Shown here: one piece after another, positions 475-63,208 of the stretch
Position numbering within the stretch: position 1 is the first letter of the stretch
How the letters are laid out: each line of letters starts with the position of its first letter
From: Candidatus Krumholzibacteriia bacterium
GTDB lineage: Bacteria > Krumholzibacteriota > Krumholzibacteriia > WVZY01 > JAKEHA01
DNA length: 64,000 nucleotides
Assembly: GCA_029865265.1 (NCBI GenBank)
Contig: JAOUHG010000001.1
Location: 93,213 to 157,212, forward strand
Direction of reading: 5' to 3'
Program-made: the position numbers and the translations under genes
Notes under the pieces: model-generated
What the model was told of the DNA's origin: nothing
What the model saw: the letters and a program-made list of their open reading frames with translations, nothing else
Databases searched by the model: none

Positions 475-3210
475 TCACCGTTGCGCGGGCGCGGCATCCG
501 CGCGCCGAACGGGCGGCTTCCACGTATCCATCTTGCGCGTCCCCAGAACGGCGTCGGGCGATATCGAATAGTCGAGCTGAAAGTCGCGGTGTTTCATGAG
601 CTCGATCATGCGCGGATTGTCCGGTGTCGTTTCCGCGAACACCTTGCGGATGCCCTGCTCCTTCGCTATCTCCAGGCAGTAATCGGTGAGGAGCGAGCCC
701 AGGCCGGCTTCCTGGAAGGCGTCCGCCACCAGCACGGCGTACTCGGCGTCGGTGCGGTCCGCGTCGGCCACCAGGCGTCCCACACCGATCAGCCGCCGCC
801 GGTCGTTCTCCTCGAGTTCCGCCACGATGGCAATCTCGCGGTCGTAGTCGATGAAGCAGAAGCGCGTGGCCATTTCGTGCGTGGTCTGCTTGAAGAGATA
901 GCGGAAGCGAAACCAGATCGACTGCTGTGAGCAGCTCGCCAGCAACTCGTGCCACATGGGTTCGTCCTCCGGTTTGATGGGCCGGAGCAGAACACGGCGG
1001 CCGTCCTTGAGTTTTGCGATGCGCGTGTACTCCTCGGGGTAGGGCCGGATGGCCAGGTGCGAGTACGGTCGCACCGGGTGCAACAGCGACTCGTGATCCA
1101 GGATGATGCGTGCGTCGAGCGCGATGGCGTCCTGCGGTGTCACCAGCAGCGGGTTCACGTCCAGCTCCGCGATCTCCGGATAATCGGCCACCAGGTAGGA
1201 AAGCCGCATGAGAACTTCGATGAGGCGGTCGATGTTGACGGCGGGGCGTCCCCGGTAACCCTGCAACAGCGGCCACGAACGCAGCGACTCCAGCATGCGC
1301 CGCGCCAGCCGCTCGGAGAGCGGGGGCAGTTCCAGAGCGCGGTCCTTGAACACCTCAGCCGCCGTTCCACCCGTTCCCACCATCAGCACCGTTCCGAACA
1401 CCGGATCACGTTTGGCGCCCACGATGAGCTCGTAACCGGTGGGATGCGTGATCATGGGTTGGATGGTCACGCCCTCCACGTGCGCGTCGGGCCGCCTCTC
1501 GCGCGCGGTCGTCACGATCTCATGGTAGGCCGCATGCACCGCATCGTCGGTGGCGAGGCTCAACGCCACCCCGTTCACTTCGGTCTTGTGGGTAATGTCG
1601 GAGGACATCACCTTCATCGCCACCGGGTAGCCGATGCGCCGCGCAAACTGCACGGCATCTTCCACCGAGCGCGCCGCGAAGGGCTTGGCCACCGGTATCT
1701 CGTATGCCTCCAACAGCGCCTTGGAGGTGCTCTCGGTGAGGGTGTCGTGCCCCTCGCTGAGGATGGTGTTGAACACCGCGCGCAACTTGCCGCGGTCGAG
1801 TTTGAACTCCATGGGAATGTCACGCGGTGTTTCGTAGAGCACCTCGCGCGTGCGCGCGTATTCCACCATGTACATGAACGCGCGCACCGCCTGTTCCGGC
1901 GTCGAGTACGCGGGGATGCCCGCCTCGGTGAGCAGATCCACGCCCTGTGTCATGCTCACCCCGCCCATCCACGAGGCGAGCACCGGCTTGGGCGACGCCT
2001 TGGCCACCTTGATGACGGCACGGGCGCTGTCGGTGGGCTTGCTCACCGCCTGCGGCGCAAATACCACCAGTGCCGCGTCGACGCCCCCGTCGTCGAGAAC
2101 GCCGGTCAACGCCGTGGCAAGTCGTGCCGGGGAGGCATCCCCGATGACGTCGACGGGATTGCGGTGCGACCACGTCGGGGGCAGCGCCCCGTTGAGCGCG
2201 TCGATGGTCTTCTCGTCGAGTCTCGCGAGGACACCCTTTCGCTCCAACAGGGCGTCGGTTGCCATCACGCCGGGGCCGCCGGCGTTGGTGACGATGGCCA
2301 GGCGCGGACCACGTGGAAACTTCTCCCGCGCCAGCAACTCTGCGCAGTAGAACATGTCCGCCATCTCCAGGATGCGGACGACGCCGGCCCGCCGAAACGC
2401 GGCCTGGTAGACCGCGTCCACGCCGGCCATGGCGCCGGTATGTGATGCGGCCGCCTCCGCCGACTCGGCAAAGCGTCCCGCCTTGTAGGCGATGATGGGC
2501 TTCCGGCGCGCGAACGCGCGCGCCGCCGACATGAACTCGCGCGCTTCGGTAATGGACTCGACGTACAGAATGATGGACTTGGTGTGGGGGTCGTTGGCGA
2601 AGTAGTCGATCAGGTCACCCATGCCCACGTCGAGCATGTTGCCCACGGAGACAAAGTTGGAGAAACCAATCTTCTCCTTGGTCGCCCAGTCGAGCACCGC
2701 CGTGCACAGCGCGCCGGACTGCGAGAGGAACGCGATGTGACCCTTGGCGGGCGTCGCGTTGGCGAACGACGCGTTGAGCGAAGCGTGCGGCGCCATCAGG
2801 CCGAGACAGTTGGGTCCCAGGATGCGCAGGCCGTCGAACTTCTGCGCCTCCTGCCGGATCGCCTGCTCGAGTGCCTCTCCGTCGCTGCCGATCTCGCGAA
2901 AACCGGCAGACAGAATTACGAGCCCGAATATGCCGCGCTCGCCACACTGCCGTACCACGGCCGGCATGGTCTTCGCCGGTGTGCAGATGACGGCCAGGTC
3001 GGGCGCTTCGGGCAGATCGGCGATGCTCGCGAAGCACCGGGCGTTGCCGATGCGCTTGTACTTGGGATTGACCGGGTAGATTGGTCCGGTAAAGCCGCCC
3101 TCTTTGAGGTTGTGCAAGACCGTATACCCGAGACTGTTGGGCGTGCGGCTGGCACCGATGACGGTGATGCTCTTGGGACGGAAGATGTTACCGAGGTTGC
3201 GAACGGACAT
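475..3210 (-). CDS. Pat-like bifunctional protein: NDP-forming acyl-CoA synthetase (CoA-binding and ATP-grasp) domains fused to a C-terminal GNAT N-acetyltransferase (protein lysine acetyltransferase type)
   Basis: 911-aa ORF. N-terminus has a CoA-binding Rossmann region (ITVIGASRTPNSLGY...) and the succinyl-CoA synthetase-like alpha/beta architecture. The last ~180 aa form a GNAT fold (RLIGVGRLVADAD...VADAFQEAGLGSLL). The architecture matches Salmonella Pat. Confidence 0.75.
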   Translation of the reverse strand: MSVRNLGNIFRPKSITVIGASRTPNSLGYTVLHNLKEGGFTGPIYPVNPKYKRIGNARCFASIADLPEAPDLAVICTPAKTMPAVVRQCGERGIFGLVILSAGFREIGSDGEALEQAIRQEAQKFDGLRILGPNCLGLMAPHASLNASFANATPAKGHIAFLSQSGALCTAVLDWATKEKIGFSNFVSVGNMLDVGMGDLIDYFANDPHTKSIILYVESITEAREFMSAARAFARRKPIIAYKAGRFAESAEAAASHTGAMAGVDAVYQAAFRRAGVVRILEMADMFYCAELLAREKFPRGPRLAIVTNAGGPGVMATDALLERKGVLARLDEKTIDALNGALPPTWSHRNPVDVIGDASPARLATALTGVLDDGGVDAALVVFAPQAVSKPTDSARAVIKVAKASPKPVLASWMGGVSMTQGVDLLTEAGIPAYSTPEQAVRAFMYMVEYARTREVLYETPRDIPMEFKLDRGKLRAVFNTILSEGHDTLTESTSKALLEAYEIPVAKPFAARSVEDAVQFARRIGYPVAMKVMSSDITHKTEVNGVALSLATDDAVHAAYHEIVTTARERRPDAHVEGVTIQPMITHPTGYELIVGAKRDPVFGTVLMVGTGGTAAEVFKDRALELPPLSERLARRMLESLRSWPLLQGYRGRPAVNIDRLIEVLMRLSYLVADYPEIAELDVNPLLVTPQDAIALDARIILDHESLLHPVRPYSHLAIRPYPEEYTRIAKLKDGRRVLLRPIKPEDEPMWHELLASCSQQSIWFRFRYLFKQTTHEMATRFCFIDYDREIAIVAELEENDRRRLIGVGRLVADADRTDAEYAVLVADAFQEAGLGSLLTDYCLEIAKEQGIRKVFAETTPDNPRMIELMKHRDFQLDYSISPDAVLGTRKMDTWKPPVRRADAAPAQR

Positions 3211-56473: not shown

Positions 56474-57658
56474 ATGTCGATTCGCGATTCCATCCTCTCG
56501 TCCGCCGGACGGGCCAACGCGCTCGTGCTGCTGGTGACGGTGTTCGTGCTGCTCGTGGGTGCGGAGATCGCCCTGCGCATTACCTACCACCCCGAGAACC
56601 TCGGCACGGTCATTCGCTACGACGACCTGCTCGGCTGGAGTCTTGTCCCCAACGCCATGCTCATCAGCAACGACACCGGCCGTGGCCTGCACTACCGCAT
56701 GGACATCAACTCCATCGGCCTGCGCGAGGACGAGGTGGACCTGCCCAAGCCGAAGGGCCGCAAGCGCGTGCTCATCCTGGGCGACTCGATTGCGTTCGGC
56801 AGCGGGGTGCAGGGCAACGAGCGCTTCTCGGATCACCTCAAGGGTGAGCTTCCCGGGGACGTCGACATCGTGAACGCGGGGGTTCCGGGGTGGGGAACAG
56901 ACCAGGAGCTGCTCTTCTACGAGCGCGACCTGCGCCGCCTGGAAGCGGACATCGTGGTGCTCGAGTTCACCGCCAACAACGATGTGGTCAACAACGAGCT
57001 GCGCGGCCCGCTCATCGAGGACGGCACCAAGCCGCGATTCCGCTGCAACGACGGTGTGCTGACGCTGGAGCCCCCCAACCGGCCGGCCGTGGTGGCCACC
57101 ACGGCGAAGGCGCGCGTAAAAAGCGTGCTGCGCAAGAGCAGGCTGCTGCTCTTCGTCAAGCGCCGCCTGGAAATGCGCCACTACAAGCAGCACGCGCGGG
57201 AGGATCCCTCGCTGGCCCACGCCGGCTACGAGGCCGACCGCCACCTCTCCCACTGGTCGGTGTACGACACGCGCGGTGGCGTCGCCATCGAGACGGCGTG
57301 GAGCGTCACGGAGTGCATCTTCGCCCAGCTCGCGCACGACTGCCGCGAGGATTCGGTGCGCCTCATCGTCTTTGCGTTCCCGCTCAAGATCGAAGTGGAC
57401 GTGCCCTGGCGCGACGACCTGATCCAGCGCACCCAGACCGACCCGCAGTACCTCGACTACATGCGTCCCTACCGGCGCATGGAGGCGATCTGTGCGCGCG
57501 AGGGAATCGAGTTCGTGTATCCGCTGGACGCGTTTCGGCACGCCCTCGCGGAGGGCCCTTTGTACTTCGAACACGACAGCCACCCCAATGCGCACGCGCA
57601 CGCCGTGGCCGCGGGGGCCCTGCGCGACGTGCTGGTGCCGGCCGTGTCCCGCCGCTGA
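56474..57658 (+). CDS. membrane-anchored SGNH/GDSL-family hydrolase (polysaccharide O-acyl transferase/esterase-like)
   Basis: N-terminal TM (ALVLLVTVFVLLVGAEIAL), GDS block (VLILGDSIAFGSG), a Gly block (NAGVPGWG) and a C-terminal DxxH block. Confidence 0.65.
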   Translation: MSIRDSILSSAGRANALVLLVTVFVLLVGAEIALRITYHPENLGTVIRYDDLLGWSLVPNAMLISNDTGRGLHYRMDINSIGLREDEVDLPKPKGRKRVLILGDSIAFGSGVQGNERFSDHLKGELPGDVDIVNAGVPGWGTDQELLFYERDLRRLEADIVVLEFTANNDVVNNELRGPLIEDGTKPRFRCNDGVLTLEPPNRPAVVATTAKARVKSVLRKSRLLLFVKRRLEMRHYKQHAREDPSLAHAGYEADRHLSHWSVYDTRGGVAIETAWSVTECIFAQLAHDCREDSVRLIVFAFPLKIEVDVPWRDDLIQRTQTDPQYLDYMRPYRRMEAICAREGIEFVYPLDAFRHALAEGPLYFEHDSHPNAHAHAVAAGALRDVLVPAVSRR

Positions 57659-57738
57659 GCCGTGTTTGCGCCTCCGTTGCGTGGCACATCCTGTGCAGTC
57701 TCACCCGTGCGTGGAGTAACCGACCGAGGGAGGACATC

Positions 57739-58983
57739 ATGAGGAACTACCGCGACCGAAGCGCCTGGCCGAATCGGGCCAATATGCGCGCCGCCCTTGC
57801 GGGCGCGATGATTCTTTCCAGCCTGCTCGCGTGGGGCGATGCCAGGGCCCAGTGTGCCATGCAGCAGTTTCAAAACTACACCGGTGGCGGGACCACGGCG
57901 TGCCCCTGCTTTGTCTCCGGTGAACAGGCGGGTGCGGTGTTCAACCTGCCCGCTTCCGAGTATCCCATCGAGATCCTGCGCGTGGGCGTAGGCTGGGGGT
58001 CCGCCTTCGGAGGGTCGGGACAGACGCTGGAACAGGCCATCCACATTTATACCGGCAGCATCCCCAACCCGGGTCTGCCGCTGTTCTCGCTGGTGGGCCC
58101 GCAGCTCACCGACGGCGCCATCAACGAGTTCAACCTGGAGCCGCTGCCGGGAGAAATCCGCATCGAGTCCGGTTCGTTCATGGTGACGCTCGAGTTCATG
58201 AACACCAATCAGAATGACTTCTTTGCCGGCACCGTGGTGTCCGACGGCAACGGTTGCCAGCCCGGCAAGAACGTGATCTACGCGATACCCGGCGGCTGGG
58301 GCGATGCCTGCTCGGCGGGCGTGAGCGGCGACTGGGTGTTCTTTGTGAAGTATCGCTCGCTCAAGGTAACCGCGGGTGCGAGTCCGGTGTCGGTTGCGTT
58401 CAGCGGTGTTCCGTTCAATCAGACCACGTGTGACACGGTCTACGTGTCCAACACCGGCTGTGACACGCTCATGATCGACGGCATCCTGGGGTGCGGCACA
58501 TCGCCATTCTCCCTCGACACCACCATGACGTCGCACTCGGTGCCGCCCGGTGGTCAGACGCCGATCACGGTGTGCGTCACGCCCACCAGTGCCGCCACGG
58601 ATAATTGCACCATCACCGTGGTGAGCAATGCCGGCAACGGCCCCACCATGATCCCGGTTTCGCTGGATGGCGTGACCGCGGTGTCGGGTCCGCCGGTGGA
58701 CAACGGATTCGGCATTCTCAGTGTCGCGCCCAACCCGTTCAATCCCCAGACCACCATCCGCTTTGTCATTCCGAGAGCGCTGCCGGTGACGGCGGAGGTG
58801 TGGGCGGTGGACGGATCGCACGTTCGCACGCTGGCGCGTGAACAGAATTTCCCCGCCGGCGACAACGCCCTGGTGTGGGATGGACGCAGCGACGGCGGAC
58901 AGTCCGTGGTCTCCGGCGTGTACTTCCTGAGCGTGAAGACGGCGCTGGGACGCCGCGTAACCCGGGCCGTGCTGCTGGAATAG
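57739..58983 (+). CDS. hypothetical secreted Cys-rich protein with T9SS-like C-terminal sorting domain
   Basis: GAGGGAGG RBS, signal peptide (ALAGAMILSSLLAWGDARA), and a tail (APNPFNPQTTIRFVI...LVWDGRSDGGQSVVSGVYFLSVK). Confidence 0.55.
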   Translation: MRNYRDRSAWPNRANMRAALAGAMILSSLLAWGDARAQCAMQQFQNYTGGGTTACPCFVSGEQAGAVFNLPASEYPIEILRVGVGWGSAFGGSGQTLEQAIHIYTGSIPNPGLPLFSLVGPQLTDGAINEFNLEPLPGEIRIESGSFMVTLEFMNTNQNDFFAGTVVSDGNGCQPGKNVIYAIPGGWGDACSAGVSGDWVFFVKYRSLKVTAGASPVSVAFSGVPFNQTTCDTVYVSNTGCDTLMIDGILGCGTSPFSLDTTMTSHSVPPGGQTPITVCVTPTSAATDNCTITVVSNAGNGPTMIPVSLDGVTAVSGPPVDNGFGILSVAPNPFNPQTTIRFVIPRALPVTAEVWAVDGSHVRTLAREQNFPAGDNALVWDGRSDGGQSVVSGVYFLSVKTALGRRVTRAVLLE

Positions 58984-59040
58984 CGGGGAGAAGAATGTTG
59001 GATTTTTTTCTTGTCTGGTGCCGCTGCGAGTGCGTAACGT

Positions 59041-59275
59041 AACGGCATGAGGTTCGCGACCGAGTCGCGACGGCTCCGACCGACCTGGGCGGTACGGGGG
59101 GCCGGGCGAGGTGGGTCTCGCCGATCATTGGGCACGCCCGAAGGAGGTGATCCAGTGAGTACAGAAAGATGCGGCTTAGTGGAGGTGGCGTCCCCGTAGG
59201 GGAAACTTCCACGAAACGTGGCTTCTGTAGGTCACCCCTTCAAGCGGGGGGAACCCAACGCCACCGAAACTGATC
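59041..59275 (+). ncRNA. candidate structured leader / small RNA with embedded 14-codon ORF
   Basis: Putative TTGTCT-N18-TAACGT promoter at 59011-59040. AAGGAGGTGATCC (59141-59153) is a perfect 13-nt complement of the 16S rRNA 3' tail, followed 1-2 nt later by GTG and 14 codons (VSTERCGLVEVASP*). Several perfect hairpins follow (CCACG-aaa-CGTGG; CCCC-gta-GGGG; CCCC-ttcaagc-GGGG), plus long-range complementarity GGTGGCGT / ACGCCACC and a TGATCCAG direct repeat. Confidence 0.3.
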
Positions 59276-59315
59276 CAGCCGGGGCCTCGCCGCATGCGGG
59301 GTCCCGGTTTTTTTC
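59276..59315 (+). terminator. intrinsic terminator: GC-rich hairpin plus a run of 7 T residues
   Basis: CCGGGGCC-TCGCCGCATGCGG-GGTCCCGG followed by TTTTTTT (59308-59314), 34 nt upstream of the DUF302 start codon. Confidence 0.5.
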
Positions 59316-59348
59316 AGCGAAGACTTTCTTATGGCCAGGGAGAAGGAA

Positions 59349-59736
59349 CATGAACATCGGCATCAAGAAGAACCTCTCCATCTCGTTTGACGAGGCACTC
59401 GCCGCCGTCCCGGAGGCGCTGAAGGCGGAGGGTTTTGGAATCCTCACCGAAATCGACGTGCAGAAGACGCTGGACGAGAAACTCCACGTCCCCTTCCGCC
59501 GCTATCGCATCCTCGGCGCCTGCAATCCGCCGCTGGCGCACCGGGTTCTGACCGCGGAGACGGACGCGGGGGTCATGCTGCCTTGCAACGTCATCGTCTA
59601 CGAGGGCGACGATGGGCGTGCGGTGGTTACGGCCGTGGACCCCATGCAGACGCTGGCCCGCGAGCACCCCGTGCTCGAGCCGGTGGCGCGCGAGGTGCAG
59701 GAAAAGCTGACGCGCGTGGTCGAAAAGCTGCGCTGA
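59349..59736 (+). CDS. DUF302-family protein
   Basis: 129 aa (MNIGIKKNLSISFDEALAAV...ILGACNP...VIVYEGDDG) with GGAGAAGGAA upstream. GC is lower than in the flanking genes. Confidence 0.6.
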
Positions 59737-59863: not shown

Positions 59864-60430
59864 ATGAAGCGTTTTGTGCCCCTGCTGCTCATTGCAATGG
59901 TTGCCGCCCTCGGTGTCTCGTGCTCGCAACGCAACTTCCAGAATACGCTCGAGATTGAGAGCCGCACCATCCCGGGTATCGACTTCAGTCAATACCACAA
60001 TTGGAAGTTCGCCCGCGAGGAGGAGTATCCGATGACCAACATCCCGGTTCTCGACGACCCGGGCTTCAGAAACTCGGTGGGGCTCTCCATGATAGAAGAC
60101 ATGAATAAGCTCGGATACACCAAGGTCGACAGCCTTCAGGACTTCGTCATGATGATTCACGTGGTAGTGGAGGACAAGTTTGACCAGCAGAAGATGAATG
60201 ACATCTACCAGGGCTACGACATGGCCTGGGCGCAGATGAGCGCCGATGACTACTGGAAAGAGGGGGAGTTGCTGCTCTTCGCCATGGACGCAAAAACCGG
60301 CAAGCAGATATGGAGCGCGGCCGCCCACGCCAGGCTCGACAAGGAACCTGCCAAGGCCGAGACCACCAAGAAGCGCATCAAGAGCATCATTTCCACGATG
60401 CTCGAGGATTTCCCCAGGGCGATGAAGTAG
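59864..60430 (+). CDS. putative lipoprotein (possibly DUF4136-like), lower-GC gene
   Basis: Signal plus lipobox (LLIAMVAALGVSCS); ~57% GC against the ~68% background. Confidence 0.45.
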   Translation: MKRFVPLLLIAMVAALGVSCSQRNFQNTLEIESRTIPGIDFSQYHNWKFAREEEYPMTNIPVLDDPGFRNSVGLSMIEDMNKLGYTKVDSLQDFVMMIHVVVEDKFDQQKMNDIYQGYDMAWAQMSADDYWKEGELLLFAMDAKTGKQIWSAAAHARLDKEPAKAETTKKRIKSIISTMLEDFPRAMK

Positions 60431-60435
60431 GACGC

Positions 60436-62532
60436 CTACTCGCGGGCGTGCATACGCACGATGCGTCGTGCCGCCGCACCGTCCGCCGACAGCACGCGCA
60501 CAAAATAGACACCGGGCGCCACAGGGCGTCCGGTGTCGTCTTTTCCGTCCCACAGGAACTGGTTTGCGTTCGCGCCCGGCGGAGAGAGGCGGCGCACGCG
60601 CCGTCCTCGCGCGTCGTGGATGGTGATCATGGCCGGTGATCTTCCGGACAGCACGATGGTGGTCACGCCCCGCGATGGATTGGGGAAGACCGACCGGATG
60701 ATACCGCCACCAGCACCGCCGGGAGGCGTGCGCAGCGGGACCACGCTGGCCACCACCGGGTCGTGATCGCTGGCCGCGTTCGCAGACCCGCTGCACACGT
60801 GGACGATATCCACCGCGGCGCCCGCAACCAGCGCCGGGCTCACGAGGATACGATCGTAGGCGTGGGCGTTGCCCTCGTAGACATACGAGTAGCGCTCTTC
60901 CTCGCTGAGCCGCCAGTGCAGGTCGAAGAGCGCGGTCGATGACGACAGCGGCGCCAGCGCACCGGAGAAGACGTCGTCGTTGAAATCGCCCGCCACGATC
61001 ACGCGCGCGTCCGGATCCAGGCGCAGAATCGACTGCACGAAGTCGCGCACGATTTCCGCCTGCGCAAAGCGCTTGCCGGAGCGCGGATCGAAGGGCGGCT
61101 GCACGGAGCCGAATTCCGGCGTGGTGCCGCTGCGCGAGGAGAAATGGCACGCCACCAGGAACAGCGGCACCGCGCCCACACGGAACTCCGCGGCCAGCGG
61201 CTTGCGCGCCGCTTCCCACGCCGCGTTGGCCGGATCCACGCGCCCCGGGCTCAGCGTGAGCATCACGCTGTCGCCGGCCGGAACCGCCGACGTTCCCGTG
61301 TTCGCATCTGCTGCCCCGCGATCCACAAAGGAAATGCGCGTGGAATCGAACAATACTGCCACGCGGATGTTGCCGCCGGGAACACCACCGTCCGCGCCGT
61401 CGGCGGGTGCCACTTCGCGCGCGGCGTAGGTTGGACCCCCCGCGCGGCGTATGGCGGCGGCCAGCGTGTCGAGGGTGGCGGTGGCGCCTGCAGTGCCGTC
61501 GTCCACCGGTCCGCTCGAGTCCTGGATCTCCTGCATGACGAGGATGGCGGGCGCGCCGAGAGAGCGAACGACGATCTCCGCGAGGCGCGGCACGCGATCG
61601 GTGTCGGCGGGCGAGAGGTTGCGCACATTGAAGCTGGCGATGCTAAGCCGTTCGCGCCCGCCCGGGAGCGACACGGACGCCGGCGCGGGCGCGGCCGAAA
61701 CCGCCGCCGGCGACGCCCCGGGCAACACTTCGTAGCAGCCAAAGCGATAGTCCACCACGCCCACCACGTCCGCCATGACGTCGCCGGTGTCGAACGCCGG
61801 CATGGGTGCGGGCAGGAGCGCGTCGTCGATCTGGACCCGCTCCGGGTTGGCGTCGCGCAGCGTGGCGGTGAGGGCGCCGCCAGCACTCATGCCGCTGAAG
61901 CCGTTGTCGACCGCCACCCACACCTCGCCAAACGCGTTGGTGGGACCCACCACGCGTGGCGCCACCAGCCGCACGCGCATGCCTTCCAGACTCTCCCAGA
62001 AGTCGATGCCGTCGTGCGACGGTTCGAAGATGGTGAGGGCGTCGTCGTCCATGATGTCCCCGGGTGGAATCCGGCCCGAACCGCCGATCACGACCGCAAT
62101 GGGCAGCGGCCGCTGGCGCGCCAGGATGCGCACCGACGAGGGGTGGATCTCGGTGATGCTGAGATTCTCCGGGTCGCCGCCCGGGAGAAATTCCACCACG
62201 GTGCCGGCAACTTCGACCTCGTCACCCGATGAAACGCCCGGCGCGGTGCCGGTGTAGGTAAAGACGCCATCGGCGGTCGCGTTGTCGCCGTCGCCGGTTG
62301 GGTCCTGGAGGTAGAACCCGTTGTGGACGACGGTGGTCACGATACCGCGCGTGGTTACGTCTTCTCCGCGGAACGGTGAAACGTGCGCGCGACCCTGGAT
62401 GTCTGCGATGGGCGTGGATGCTGCAAGCGCGAGTGCGCCGGTGGCGATGAAGGTGGTGAGCACGAGCGGAAGCCTCCCTGGGAGGAGGAATGTGTCGTCA
62501 TCGCGGGAGGGAACCGGGAGGACGCAAAGCAT
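60436..62532 (-). CDS. extracellular endonuclease/exonuclease/phosphatase (EEP)-family nuclease with T9SS-like C-terminal sorting domain
   Basis: EEP catalytic blocks (SFNVRNL; VMQEIQD; GDFND; SDHDPV), an N-terminal signal-like region, and a tail (SVFPNPSRGVTTIVL...FLWDGKDDTGRPVAPGVYFVRV). Start is uncertain; the ORF is open to 62598. Confidence 0.6.
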   Translation of the reverse strand: MLCVLPVPSRDDDTFLLPGRLPLVLTTFIATGALALAASTPIADIQGRAHVSPFRGEDVTTRGIVTTVVHNGFYLQDPTGDGDNATADGVFTYTGTAPGVSSGDEVEVAGTVVEFLPGGDPENLSITEIHPSSVRILARQRPLPIAVVIGGSGRIPPGDIMDDDALTIFEPSHDGIDFWESLEGMRVRLVAPRVVGPTNAFGEVWVAVDNGFSGMSAGGALTATLRDANPERVQIDDALLPAPMPAFDTGDVMADVVGVVDYRFGCYEVLPGASPAAVSAAPAPASVSLPGGRERLSIASFNVRNLSPADTDRVPRLAEIVVRSLGAPAILVMQEIQDSSGPVDDGTAGATATLDTLAAAIRRAGGPTYAAREVAPADGADGGVPGGNIRVAVLFDSTRISFVDRGAADANTGTSAVPAGDSVMLTLSPGRVDPANAAWEAARKPLAAEFRVGAVPLFLVACHFSSRSGTTPEFGSVQPPFDPRSGKRFAQAEIVRDFVQSILRLDPDARVIVAGDFNDDVFSGALAPLSSSTALFDLHWRLSEEERYSYVYEGNAHAYDRILVSPALVAGAAVDIVHVCSGSANAASDHDPVVASVVPLRTPPGGAGGGIIRSVFPNPSRGVTTIVLSGRSPAMITIHDARGRRVRRLSPPGANANQFLWDGKDDTGRPVAPGVYFVRVLSADGAAARRIVRMHARE

Positions 62533-62596
62533 AAGGCATGATCGCGGTGGAGGCAAGGCGCGCGCACGTGCTAGTGTCGCCGCACAAGGAGAAACC

Positions 62597-63208
62597 ATGC
62601 CTGAGCGTCCGCCCGATATCCGCAGCCAGTTTGACCGCGCGTTCTTCGAGCGCTTCTACCAGCGGTCGTCCACGGCGGTGATATCCGCGGACGACGTCTA
62701 CCGCCGTGCGCGCTTCGTGCTCGCCTACCTGGCGCACCTGCAACTGGAGGTTCACTCCGTGCTCGACGCGGGCTGCGGCACCGGGCTGTGGAAGAAGGCG
62801 CTGCGGCGGGTGGACCGCGACATCGCGTACACCGGCATCGATCCCAGCGAGTACCTGTGCCGCCGCTATGGCTGGACGCAGACGGCCATCGCCGACTTCG
62901 CGCCGCGGCGCACGTTCGACCTGGTGGTGTGCCAGGACGTGCTGCAGTACGTGGACGACACCGGCGTGCGCCGCAGCATCGCGGCCATGAAGCGCGCCTG
63001 CGCCGGCGCGCTCTACTTCGACGTGCCCACCACCGACGACATCGACGACGGCCTGCTGGACATGAAACTCACCGACCGCGCGATCCACGTGCGCGGCGCC
63101 GAGTGGTACCGCAGGCTGCTGCGCAAGAGCTTCGTCAACGCGGGCGGGGGCGTGTTCCTCAAGAAGAACGCCAGCGCGGTGATCCTGGCCCTGGAACGTC
63201 TGGGGTGA
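62597..63208 (+). CDS. class I SAM-dependent methyltransferase
   Basis: Motif I (VLDAGCGTGLW) and an acidic post-I loop (YTGIDPS); 203 aa. Confidence 0.7.
   Translation: MPERPPDIRSQFDRAFFERFYQRSSTAVISADDVYRRARFVLAYLAHLQLEVHSVLDAGCGTGLWKKALRRVDRDIAYTGIDPSEYLCRRYGWTQTAIADFAPRRTFDLVVCQDVLQYVDDTGVRRSIAAMKRACAGALYFDVPTTDDIDDGLLDMKLTDRAIHVRGAEWYRRLLRKSFVNAGGGVFLKKNASAVILALERLG

Follow-up and report, generated by a model that had tools for sequence, protein, structure and literature searches.

Analysis of a 64,000-nt stretch of DNA from a Candidatus Krumholzibacteriia bacterium (GenBank assembly GCA_029865265.1, contig JAOUHG010000001.1, positions 93,213 to 157,212 of the forward strand; here called the window, with positions counted from its first letter) revealed a small RNA (sRNA) gene on the plus strand, located upstream of a gene for a DUF302 protein. 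Comparison with homologous loci showed that the element behaves as an independent transcription unit, with a covarying fold and with a reading frame that is conserved as a frame, not as a peptide. Our reading, to which we give about an even chance of being right, is that it represents a self-contained gene for a structured sRNA of about 268 nt that would be translated and would engage the ribosome, acting as a translation-coupled switch and/or as a ribosome trap. An earlier note on this DNA had offered an independent small RNA or small protein as one of its explanations for the region, and this option was borne out by a structured RNA family with a conserved frame of 14–15 codons.

Homologues were collected with both protein and nucleotide searches. 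Relatives of the DUF302 protein of the window (77–89% identity) gave syntenic contigs on which the genes for a GDSL lipase and an ASH/FlgD_ig protein are followed by a gap of about 340–370 nt and then by DUF302 and DUF4136. Within this gap, identity was about 97% from CGGCATGAGG (59043) to the terminator. Both edges and the neighbouring protein genes diverged, and the few differences in the conserved segment were located in hairpin loops or represented wobble or compensatory changes in stems. A genome scan with one genome per species for the exact 17-mer AAGGAGGTGATCCAGTG, which includes the GTG start codon described below, resulted in at least 120 loci from several phyla, and a metagenome scan for the same 17-mer followed 22–32 nt later by GGAGGTGG resulted in 75 loci. 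The family as defined here comprises 76 distinct sequences, namely metagenome loci and genome loci among the matches listed, originating from Krumholzibacteria, from metagenome-assembled genomes (MAGs) labelled Fibrobacteraceae and Acidobacteria, and from metagenomes. Window-like genome loci among the matches listed were L070 and L105 (Krumholzibacteriia), L023 (a Fibrobacteraceae MAG), and L090 (an Acidobacteria-labelled MAG). A covariance model, R1, was built from 58 sequences (269 positions) and scored members at 90–254 bits, while other 17-mer RNAs searched reached at most 33 bits and loci L127 and L129 were not matched, a gap in scores that marks a distinct family inside a looser class. 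In the window itself, R1 found a single copy (235.5 bits at 59051–59313). Searching the whole window against Rfam 15 at gathering thresholds resulted in no family, and a permissive scan revealed only a sub-threshold match to CC2171 plus chance matches to HCV_SLVII, M23, and SOX2OT. No aptamer model came up in these scans, in agreement with the earlier failure to match the region to a known riboswitch consensus. The RNA family is new and lies outside Rfam.

In regard to its transcription, the element is preceded by a sigma-70-type promoter at 59011–59040 (+), with a -35 box TTGTCT (59011–16), a spacer of 18 nt, and a -10 box TAACGT (59035–40). The position of these boxes suggests that transcription starts near 59047 and yields an RNA of about 268 nt (59047–59314, plus strand) that extends from the predicted start to the end of the terminator U-run. 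The best -35/-10 pair ended 8–13 nt ahead of the start of the covariance model in 52 of 66 family members, many of which displayed a perfect TTGACA at -35, and the mean promoter-match score was 10.5 for the family versus 8.5 for shuffles. Across syntenic loci the boxes were kept and the surrounding bases differed. At the other end, a consensus terminator scan recovered the hairpin with seven T residues that had been read from the sequence before, now defined as an intrinsic terminator at 59277–59314 (+) with a G+C-rich stem of 14 bp and a 5-nt loop (59277–59309) followed by U7 (59308–14). In the family alignment, where it is represented by 59281–91/59295–305, 97.8% of its cells were paired, with compensatory changes at 10 of 11 pairs, and nearly all family members harbored a strong terminator. 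The unit had originally been placed between two T-runs at 59004–59010 and 59308–59314. The second run stood; the first is located at 59003–59009, upstream of the -35 box, and does not mark the transcript start. It may serve as an UP element of the promoter. An A/T-rich, UP-element-like tract directly 5' of the -35 box was also seen by eye in many members, e.g., AAATTTTTCT or GATTTTTTT. A role of the first T-run as terminator of the upstream gene was rejected, since the terminator scan showed no hairpin ahead of it.

Folding of the 310-nt stretch resulted in a z-score of -3.65, and none of 100 shuffles was as stable. Altogether, the locus displays its own promoter, its own terminator, a varied genomic context, and conservation of both sequence and structure, as is characteristic of a free-standing sRNA gene. 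No tRNA or tmRNA genes were detected at 58800–59500 with ARAGORN, nor was there an Rfam match to a tmRNA or tRNA. A mobile element or repeat was rejected as well, based on the single copy in the window and the fact that no plasmid or phage similarity of the locus was found.

Covariation strongly supported a common fold. RNAalifold on a MAFFT alignment predicted 51 pairs, 28 of them with compensatory changes. In the model-guided alignment, the annotated structure was 86.7% paired, compared to at most 50% when partners were slid by 1–3 columns, and the covariation score was 0.26 versus at most 0.083 for slid partners, values that none of 500 shuffles attained. The homologue alignment, as the earlier note had suggested, came out in favor of the structure, with six covarying helices, namely P1, P2, P3, Ha, Hc, and the terminator. 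The first three form a 5' domain at 59054–59122 (+). P1 (59054–59/59065–70) had 93.6% of its cells paired and compensatory changes at 5 of 6 pairs, P2 (59071–77/59098–104), which carries a conserved CUGGGCGG in its loop (59085–92), 94.4% and 5 of 7, and P3 (59105–10/59117–22), with the loop GUGGGU (59111–16), 98.7% and 4 of 6; one P3 pair, for example, was A-U in 47 sequences and G-C in 29. The start-codon hairpin Ha (59156–59178, plus strand) pairs UGAGU (59156–60) with GCUUA (59174–78) and thereby takes in two bases of the start codon, U and G. Its cells were paired to 91.8%, with one pair found as G-C (40) or A-U (20) and another as A-U (51), G-U (17), or G-C (8). Helix Hc, spanning 59184–59265 (+), closes the 3' domain over a long range by pairing GGUGGCGU (59184–91) with ACGCCACC (59258–65); 98.5% of its cells were paired, and compensatory changes occurred at 4 of 8 pairs, as illustrated by GGTGGCGA/TCGCCACC in L105 and GGTGGTGT/ATGCCACC in L023. 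It corresponds to the 8-nt long-range pairing of GGTGGCGT (59184–91) with ACGCCACC (59258–65) that had been spotted in the single sequence and is now confirmed as a covarying helix.

Apart from these six helices, several further pairings were identified. Helix Hb (59161–59228, plus strand) joins ACAGAA (59161–66, codons 3–4 of the reading frame) with UUCUGU (59223–28) and crosses Ha and Hc, which implies either a pseudoknot or an alternative pairing. Variants such as GACAG/CUGUC, CGAUAG/CUAUCG, and CUGACAG/CUUGUCAG accompany ACAGAA/UUCUGU, and the mean duplex energy was -7.9 kcal/mol for cognate versus -6.5 kcal/mol for non-cognate strands, a difference that stands out only in the clade closest to the window. 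A stop-codon hairpin, CCCC-GUA-GGGG (59192–59202, plus strand), holds the stop codon in or at its loop. While the loop varied between members (GUA, GUAA, UUA, GCGUUGA, GCGCUGAC, or GCAUUAA), the first in-frame stop was located inside this hairpin in every sequence inspected. As a nested alternative, its CCCC can pair with GGGG at 59246–51, in L070 with 7 bp (CCCUGCA/UGCAGGG), so that, for the interior of Hc, both two local hairpins (C1:G1, C2:G2) and a nested form (C1:G2, G1:C2) fit the sequences. Hairpin He (CCACG/CGUGG, 59209–13/59217–21, plus strand) kept its stem in close relatives with a varied loop, and Hg (CCCC/GGGG, 59235–38/59246–49, plus strand) retained its stem in L007 despite a 5-nt loop deletion. 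The conserved internal loop AACCCAAC (59252–59259, plus strand) contains ACCCA (59253–57), which is complementary to UGGGU (59112–16) in the P3 loop and represents a candidate tertiary contact. Its cells were 98.6% paired, but four core columns were without change on both sides, and these near-invariant columns make the pairing test uninformative. The flanking pair was mismatched in 20 of about 70 sequences; by eye, GGGG/CCCC was seen in L105 and L194 and A/U in L090 and L169.

The reading frame inside this fold is short. The GTG-initiated ORF (open reading frame) of 14 codons that had been pointed out before could be read directly from GTG 59155–59157 to TAG 59197–59199; in the RNA, it corresponds to the mini-ORF VSTERCGLVEVASP (59155–59199, plus strand; GUG 59155–57, UAG 59197–99). 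In all 68 full-length members, the distance from GUG to the stop was either 42 nt (54 sequences) or 45 nt (14), and over the 76 distinct sequences the frame had 14 codons in 62 and 15 codons in 14, ending with TAG (41), TAA (25), or TGA (10). The remaining two frames revealed scattered lengths across the family. The spacer from GTG to GGAGGTGG was 23 nt in 72 sequences and 26 nt in four, the scan allowing 22–32 nt. Compared to this, the segment after the stop ranged from 29 to 67 nt, with modulo-3 length classes of 23/22/21, and the upstream 5' domain likewise displayed classes of 24/23/21. When the loop that holds the stop codon was enlarged, the stop shifted by exactly one codon, and a 3-nt insertion as well as a 3-nt stop shift each recurred in several sequences. 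The fixed length of 42 or 45 nt, the flanks without a modulo-3 preference, and the one-codon shifts of the stop argue for a frame that is read. Thus, as in dual-function sRNAs, a reading frame under selection was found, based on the constant phase in 68/68 members against even modulo-3 classes in the flanks and on the use of three stop codons. The codons of the ORF at the same time furnish Ha with both of its strands and Hb and Hc with their 5' strands. From these patterns we conclude that the selected trait would be translation of the frame and not its peptide product. Other frames did not hold up. The alternative 34-codon ATG frame that had been listed beside the GTG frame does exist at 59169–59273, but was rejected as a coding frame because the 5-nt loop deletion of L007 falls inside it and its lengths are scattered across the family. 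Against long minus-strand ORFs over the region, and against any long frame, speak many indels that are not a multiple of three.

The frame is headed by an exceptionally long Shine–Dalgarno (SD) sequence. As reported before, the 13-mer AAGGAGGTGATCC at 59141–59153 is complementary to 16S rRNA and is the strongest such site of the window; we found it there as the only exact copy, with an expectation of about 0.002 occurrences in 128 kb by simple arithmetic. Together with the following AG, it forms a perfect 15-nt complement, SD1 (AAGGAGGUGAUCCAG, 59141–59155, plus strand), of the single-stranded 3' tail of 16S rRNA, which we take to read ...CUGGAUCACCUCCUU-3' from general knowledge of 16S rRNA and not from this organism. 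The GUG is located 7 nt downstream of GGAGG in SD1, and SD1 was unchanged in the syntenic loci retrieved via the DUF302 protein. The box TGATCCAG had been described as occurring twice, and both copies are present (59148–55 and 59271–78). As a family feature, the second was rejected: it is specific to the lineage near the window (CUGAUCC) and replaced elsewhere by CUGAACC, CUGAAGC, ACGGACA, etc. A second SD-like element, SD2 (GGAGGUGG, 59181–59188, plus strand), encodes Glu-Val in frame, with GGAGG at 59181–85, 11 nt before the stop codon. The strongest anti-SD site in the ORF ended 8 nt before the stop in nine of 11 sequences and at a distance of 11 nt in the other two, and the invariance of SD2 is partly imposed by the pattern of the metagenome scan.

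Both elements face look-alikes of the 16S rRNA tail, i.e., of the anti-SD, within the same RNA. CUUCC (59206–10, plus strand), overlapping He, is complementary to SD2, and a CYUCC-like motif was located at most 22 nt past the stop in 55 of 68 members. GGUCACC (59230–36, plus strand), overlapping Hg, resembles GGAUCACC and can pair with SD1; GGAUCACC itself occurred in sense orientation in 13 members. In partition-function calculations, SD2 was paired with the CUUCC region about 30% of the time, and SD1 with the GGUCACC region for about 21–24% and with an upstream ACGCCC linker for about 27–32%. Over 67 members, such folds left SD1 about 70% paired (unpaired probability of about 0.3) and the stop codon mostly unpaired.

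Based on this arrangement, the following course of events may be proposed. In the resting fold, SD1, the GUG, and SD2 would be masked by the internal anti-SD look-alikes. A 30S subunit would then win SD1, and the ribosome would translate the mini-ORF, melting Ha, Hb, and Hc on its way. At the stop codon in the hairpin loop it might pause while its anti-SD binds SD2, which lies 8 nt ahead of the P-site codon. In this way, the RNA could act as a translation-coupled conformational switch and/or as a high-affinity trap for free ribosomes, with the peptide as a by-product of translation. If true, this would be a widespread RNA gene built on the tightest grip of the mRNA-docking tail of the ribosome, in which a short frame matters because it is translated and not for the peptide it encodes. 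Even a conservative reading still adds a well-supported structured RNA family with six covarying helices and 76 distinct sequences.

Several points weigh against this proposal. We infer translation and 30S capture from the sequence alone. SD1, the GTG, and GGAGGTGG (GGAGGUGG in the RNA) were fixed by the search patterns and are pattern-independent only in L004–L012. The predicted masking comes from thermodynamic models that do not consider pseudoknots, and only some family members clearly display Hb and the internal look-alikes of 16S rRNA. Over-long SD duplexes are expected to hold the ribosome at the start, so that a duplex of 15 bp does not guarantee efficient translation. Finally, we attribute the conserved EVAS(P/S) end of the peptide to constraints on the RNA, but it could also reflect a functional peptide.

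The latter possibility leads to the best-surviving alternative, which we nevertheless regard as rather unlikely, namely that the RNA is the mRNA of a functional peptide of 14–15 residues with the consensus V-x5-G-L-V-E-V-A-S-P, whose fold only regulates its expression, possibly through a ligand- or temperature-sensing 5' domain. The conserved frame with its three stop codons would suit such an mRNA, as would the predicted masking of SD1, which resembles that of translational riboswitches. Furthermore, the C-terminus E-V-A-S-(P/S) is near-constant and G-L is common at positions 7–8, with GGC UUA and GGU CUG both encoding Gly-Leu while covarying with codon 2. On the other hand, residues 2–9 vary freely (e.g., VSTERCGL, VDSHRHGL, VDDASTCP, and VASDRSGS), codon 2 switches between Ser and Asp in step with compensatory changes in Ha, and the conserved C-terminus coincides exactly with the RNA-constrained SD2 and the Hc strand. 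In addition, the peptides encoded by sister families with the same 17-mer are unrelated and 6 to 27 residues long, and no gene for a modifying enzyme, exporter, or receptor was conserved near the family loci. A new ligand-binding role of the 5' domain is conceivable.

A second alternative would be a non-coding sRNA acting by base pairing or protein binding, in which the SD-like and C-rich stretches serve as structural elements or seeds and the ORF is a by-product. The strong covariation of six helices, the separate promoter and terminator, and the poor conservation of the peptide all agree with it, and the RNA is rich in C-rich stretches (CCCC twice, CUUCC, ACCCAAC, and GCCACC) similar to the SD-targeting seeds of known sRNAs such as RsaE/RoxS and CcsR. 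We consider it unlikely, since it leaves unexplained why the distance from GUG to the stop is a multiple of three in 68/68 members when the neighbouring segments are not so constrained, why the stop shifts by exactly one codon upon enlargement of the loop, why its place is taken by any of the three stop codons but never by UGG, and why unrelated families each have a fixed ORF length.

The RNA might also act on the small subunit outside translation, either as an antisense RNA or decoy of the 3' tail of 16S or pre-16S rRNA or by titrating Era, KsgA/RsmA, YbeY, or tail-cutting toxins. The 15-nt complement spans the whole free tail, far beyond what initiation needs, and sense identities to 16S rRNA exceeded those of shuffles: CCGUAGGGGAA in the window (11 nt, 59194–59204) and CCGUAGGGGAACCU in six members (14 nt) correspond to the GGAA loop of helix 45 together with its 5' strand, and GG(A)UCACC to the start of the 3' tail, a 14-nt identity being reached in 0 of 1360 shuffles. 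Only some family members carry these 16S-like sense segments, and the 16S sequence used is the one assumed above, not that of this organism. Since the spacing to the start codon and the conserved frame would be left unexplained, we think this mode of action very unlikely.

The earlier note had also considered a leader-peptide attenuator or riboswitch controlling the DUF302 and lipoprotein genes, a reading that did not survive the comparison of loci. A cis-acting leader of DUF302 and DUF4136 in the window lineage would fit the short ORF, the hairpins, and the terminator that precede DUF302 by 35 nt in the same orientation, i.e., the arrangement of a short ORF with a ribosome-binding site ahead of a terminator that is typical of attenuators; moreover, the adjacency to DUF302 is kept in seven loci, including L011 despite its different upstream neighbour, where the U-run is weaker. 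However, only seven of 62 family loci had DUF302 downstream, all of them closely related to the window, while the other 55 have different downstream genes, often on the opposite strand. ORFs around the family loci belonged to 58 Pfam families downstream and 52 upstream without enrichment beyond the window clade, and neither a conserved downstream operon nor a coherent gene set, as an attenuator or riboswitch would have, was found among them. No repeated regulatory codon was present in the 76 peptides, and RNAalifold and all-against-all column scans, which are noisy in such G+C-rich sequence, revealed no covarying antiterminator pairing with the terminator stem. The terminator stem is of high stability, its covariation is that of a terminator, and DUF302 has its own GGGAGAAGGA before its ATG in the window. 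With unrelated flanks, a promoter at fixed distance, and a strong terminator of its own, a cis leader is unsupported and the least probable of these explanations, and the apparent DUF302 "leader" should not carry a cis-regulatory annotation.

Some observations on the neighbourhood may be added. In L011 (1970–2365) and L012 (612–1007), the element adjoins DUF302 with a different upstream neighbour, a divergent Ribosomal_S30AE/HPF gene followed by a gene for a CBS-domain protein; as this was seen in one lineage only, it may be coincidence. Downstream in the window, a G+C-rich hairpin of 13 bp, bordered by T-rich tails on both strands (60508–60537), is located where the plus-strand DUF4136 gene (ending at 60430) and a minus-strand Exo_endo_phos/FlgD_ig gene converge. 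The longest minus-strand ORF reaches 60436, which places the hairpin inside its 3' end, and the hairpin probably represents the terminator of the plus-strand DUF302-DUF4136 unit. The large neighbouring proteins (56890–58983 and 60436–62598) carry C-terminal FlgD_ig/Por_Secre_tail-type domains, i.e., sorting signals of type IX secretion, which fits an organism of the FCB (Fibrobacteres–Chlorobi–Bacteroidetes) group. Taken from its longest-ORF start at 56890, the first of these genes overlaps that of the GDSL lipase; in public gene calls it begins about 840 nt further on (414 aa).

Beyond the family, the 17-mer AAGGAGGTGATCCAGTG heads terminator-ended intergenic units in a range of bacteria. A perfect complement of the 16S tail together with a GUG defines this wider class, to which the window family belongs. 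Among the matches listed (L013–L132), to which the counts of this paragraph refer, it was found in Alphaproteobacteria (as CC2171, Rhodobacterales, and Bradyrhizobium types), Acidobacteriota, Phycisphaerae/Planctomycetota, Krumholzibacteriia, a Fibrobacteraceae MAG, Lujinxingiaceae, and Methylomirabilis, and Rfam recognised only the CC2171-type loci and L129. The length of the mini-ORF was fixed per group at 6, 11–12, 14, 18, or 21–27 codons with mixed stops. Thus, the frame had 18 codons in 25/25 Rhodobacterales sequences (TAG/TAA/TGA 16/5/4), 14 codons in 9/9 Bradyrhizobium-type sequences (3/3/3), and 6 codons in 8/8 sequences from Acidobacteriota (1/2/5), and it ranged from 9 to 16 codons in 11 sequences from Planctomycetota/Phycisphaerae (4/5/2) and from 21 to 27 codons in 47 CC2171-like sequences (12/10/25). 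In the Rhodobacterales frames, third-position changes that spare the amino acid were seen by eye. The strongest in-frame anti-SD site ended 5–10 nt before the stop in the Krumholzi-type, Rhodobacterales, and Planctomycetota sequences and in many CC2171 loci. CC2171-, Ms_IGR-5-, and Krumholzi-type frames often end with E-V-x-x-x-stop, in which GAG GUN forms an SD-like element. Such SD-like sites near the stop suggest that these RNAs are designed to pair again with the ribosome as it terminates. Locus L129 of a Methylomirabilis MAG (1663–1865, minus strand) matched Ms_IGR-5 with 67.7 bits and revealed the exact 17-mer and a 15-codon ORF ending with C-E-V-I-V-T-stop, which extends Ms_IGR-5 beyond the Actinobacteria.

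As a more speculative extension, which we judge improbable, the RNA of the window, CC2171, Ms_IGR-5, and at least four uncatalogued families (Rhodobacterales, Bradyrhizobium-type, Acidobacteriota, and Planctomycetota/Phycisphaerae) might belong to a single ancient, multi-phylum class of "ribosome-bait" RNAs, a counterpart of 6S RNA for ribosomes. Its members would share a perfect complement of 15–17 nt to the 16S tail, a GUG, a mini-ORF of family-fixed length, and a terminator, to which several families would add an SD-like element a few nucleotides ahead of the stop. Such RNAs might capture free 30S subunits at maximal affinity, be released or remodelled by the synthesis of a short, otherwise meaningless peptide, and in this way sense or buffer translational capacity. 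If true, this would provide a lead to the function of the orphan RNAs CC2171 and Ms_IGR-5 in Caulobacter, Methylorubrum, Mycobacterium, and Streptomyces and connect them with relatives, as yet uncatalogued, from at least four other lineages. A literature search on the 13-, 15-, and 17-mers, CC2171, Ms_IGR-5, and ribosome sponges or decoys found no functional study.

Of the two catalogued RNAs, CC2171 (RF01867) is expressed in Caulobacter and Methylorubrum, with no function identified (10.1101/2022.01.24.477521). On its 5' side, the window equals the model consensus over the 18 nt of GAAGGAGGUGAUCCAGUG, and both RNAs share the motif GAAAGGAGGUGAUCCAGUG, a helix right after the GUG that closes a multi-hairpin domain, and a 3' terminator. 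Alphaproteobacterial members of CC2171 also harbor an ORF from the same GUG, with 21–27 codons, mixed stops, and often E-V-x-x-x-stop. The match of the window nevertheless remained below threshold (17.1 bits at 59133–59255 versus a gathering cutoff of 75, E = 0.26), while bona fide alphaproteobacterial CC2171 loci reached 76.7–120.2 bits. Conversely, R1 scored at most about 26 bits on CC2171-type loci, as recognised by sequence. These differ from the window family in ORF length, peptide, and phylum and, by eye, display an unstructured CAACAA-type leader before the SD without an equivalent of the three-helix 5' domain.

Ms_IGR-5 (RF02471) is an actinobacterial sRNA found in Mycobacterium smegmatis that is also expressed in Streptomyces, and the papers on it record its expression only (PMC8079986, PMC8780764). 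Its consensus consists of AAGGAGGUGGUCC, about 30 nt, GUGAGGUGGCUGCC, a UAG three codons past GAG GUG, a partner strand GCAGUCACC, and a terminator, and the order of parts in the window is the same, namely SD1, a spacer, GAGGUGGCGUCC, UAG, ACGCCACC, and a terminator. The Ms_IGR-5 model (gathering cutoff of 45 bits) found no match at E ≤ 10 in 58850–59500 with permissive filters, L129 serving as positive control at the score given above. R1 in turn did not match L129, and the 5' domain and interior hairpins of Ms_IGR-5 are unlike those of the RNA in the window.

Among systems of known mechanism, leader-peptide attenuators and the rnTrpL/peTrpL system of Sinorhizobium are generally known to place a frame of about 14 codons among hairpins ahead of an intrinsic terminator, and the released RNA can act alone. 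The window family resembles them in this layout, but is without regulatory codon runs, a conserved operon, and a recognisable antiterminator. SgrS/SgrT, RNAIII/hld, and SR1/SR1P are well-known examples of a free-standing sRNA gene with its own promoter and terminator and a small frame. While their peptides have at least 26 residues and are conserved as proteins, the window family keeps the frame and not its sequence, and the frame overlaps the core helices of the RNA. In regard to mechanism only, 6S RNA may serve as an analogy. No relation in sequence or fold exists, and there was no Rfam match to 6S in the window. As is well established, 6S RNA is a tight-binding decoy of a central machine, RNA polymerase, and serves this machine as template for a product RNA (pRNA) of 14–20 nt. 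By analogy, the machine bound by the RNA of the window would be the ribosome, and the product a peptide of 14–15 residues.

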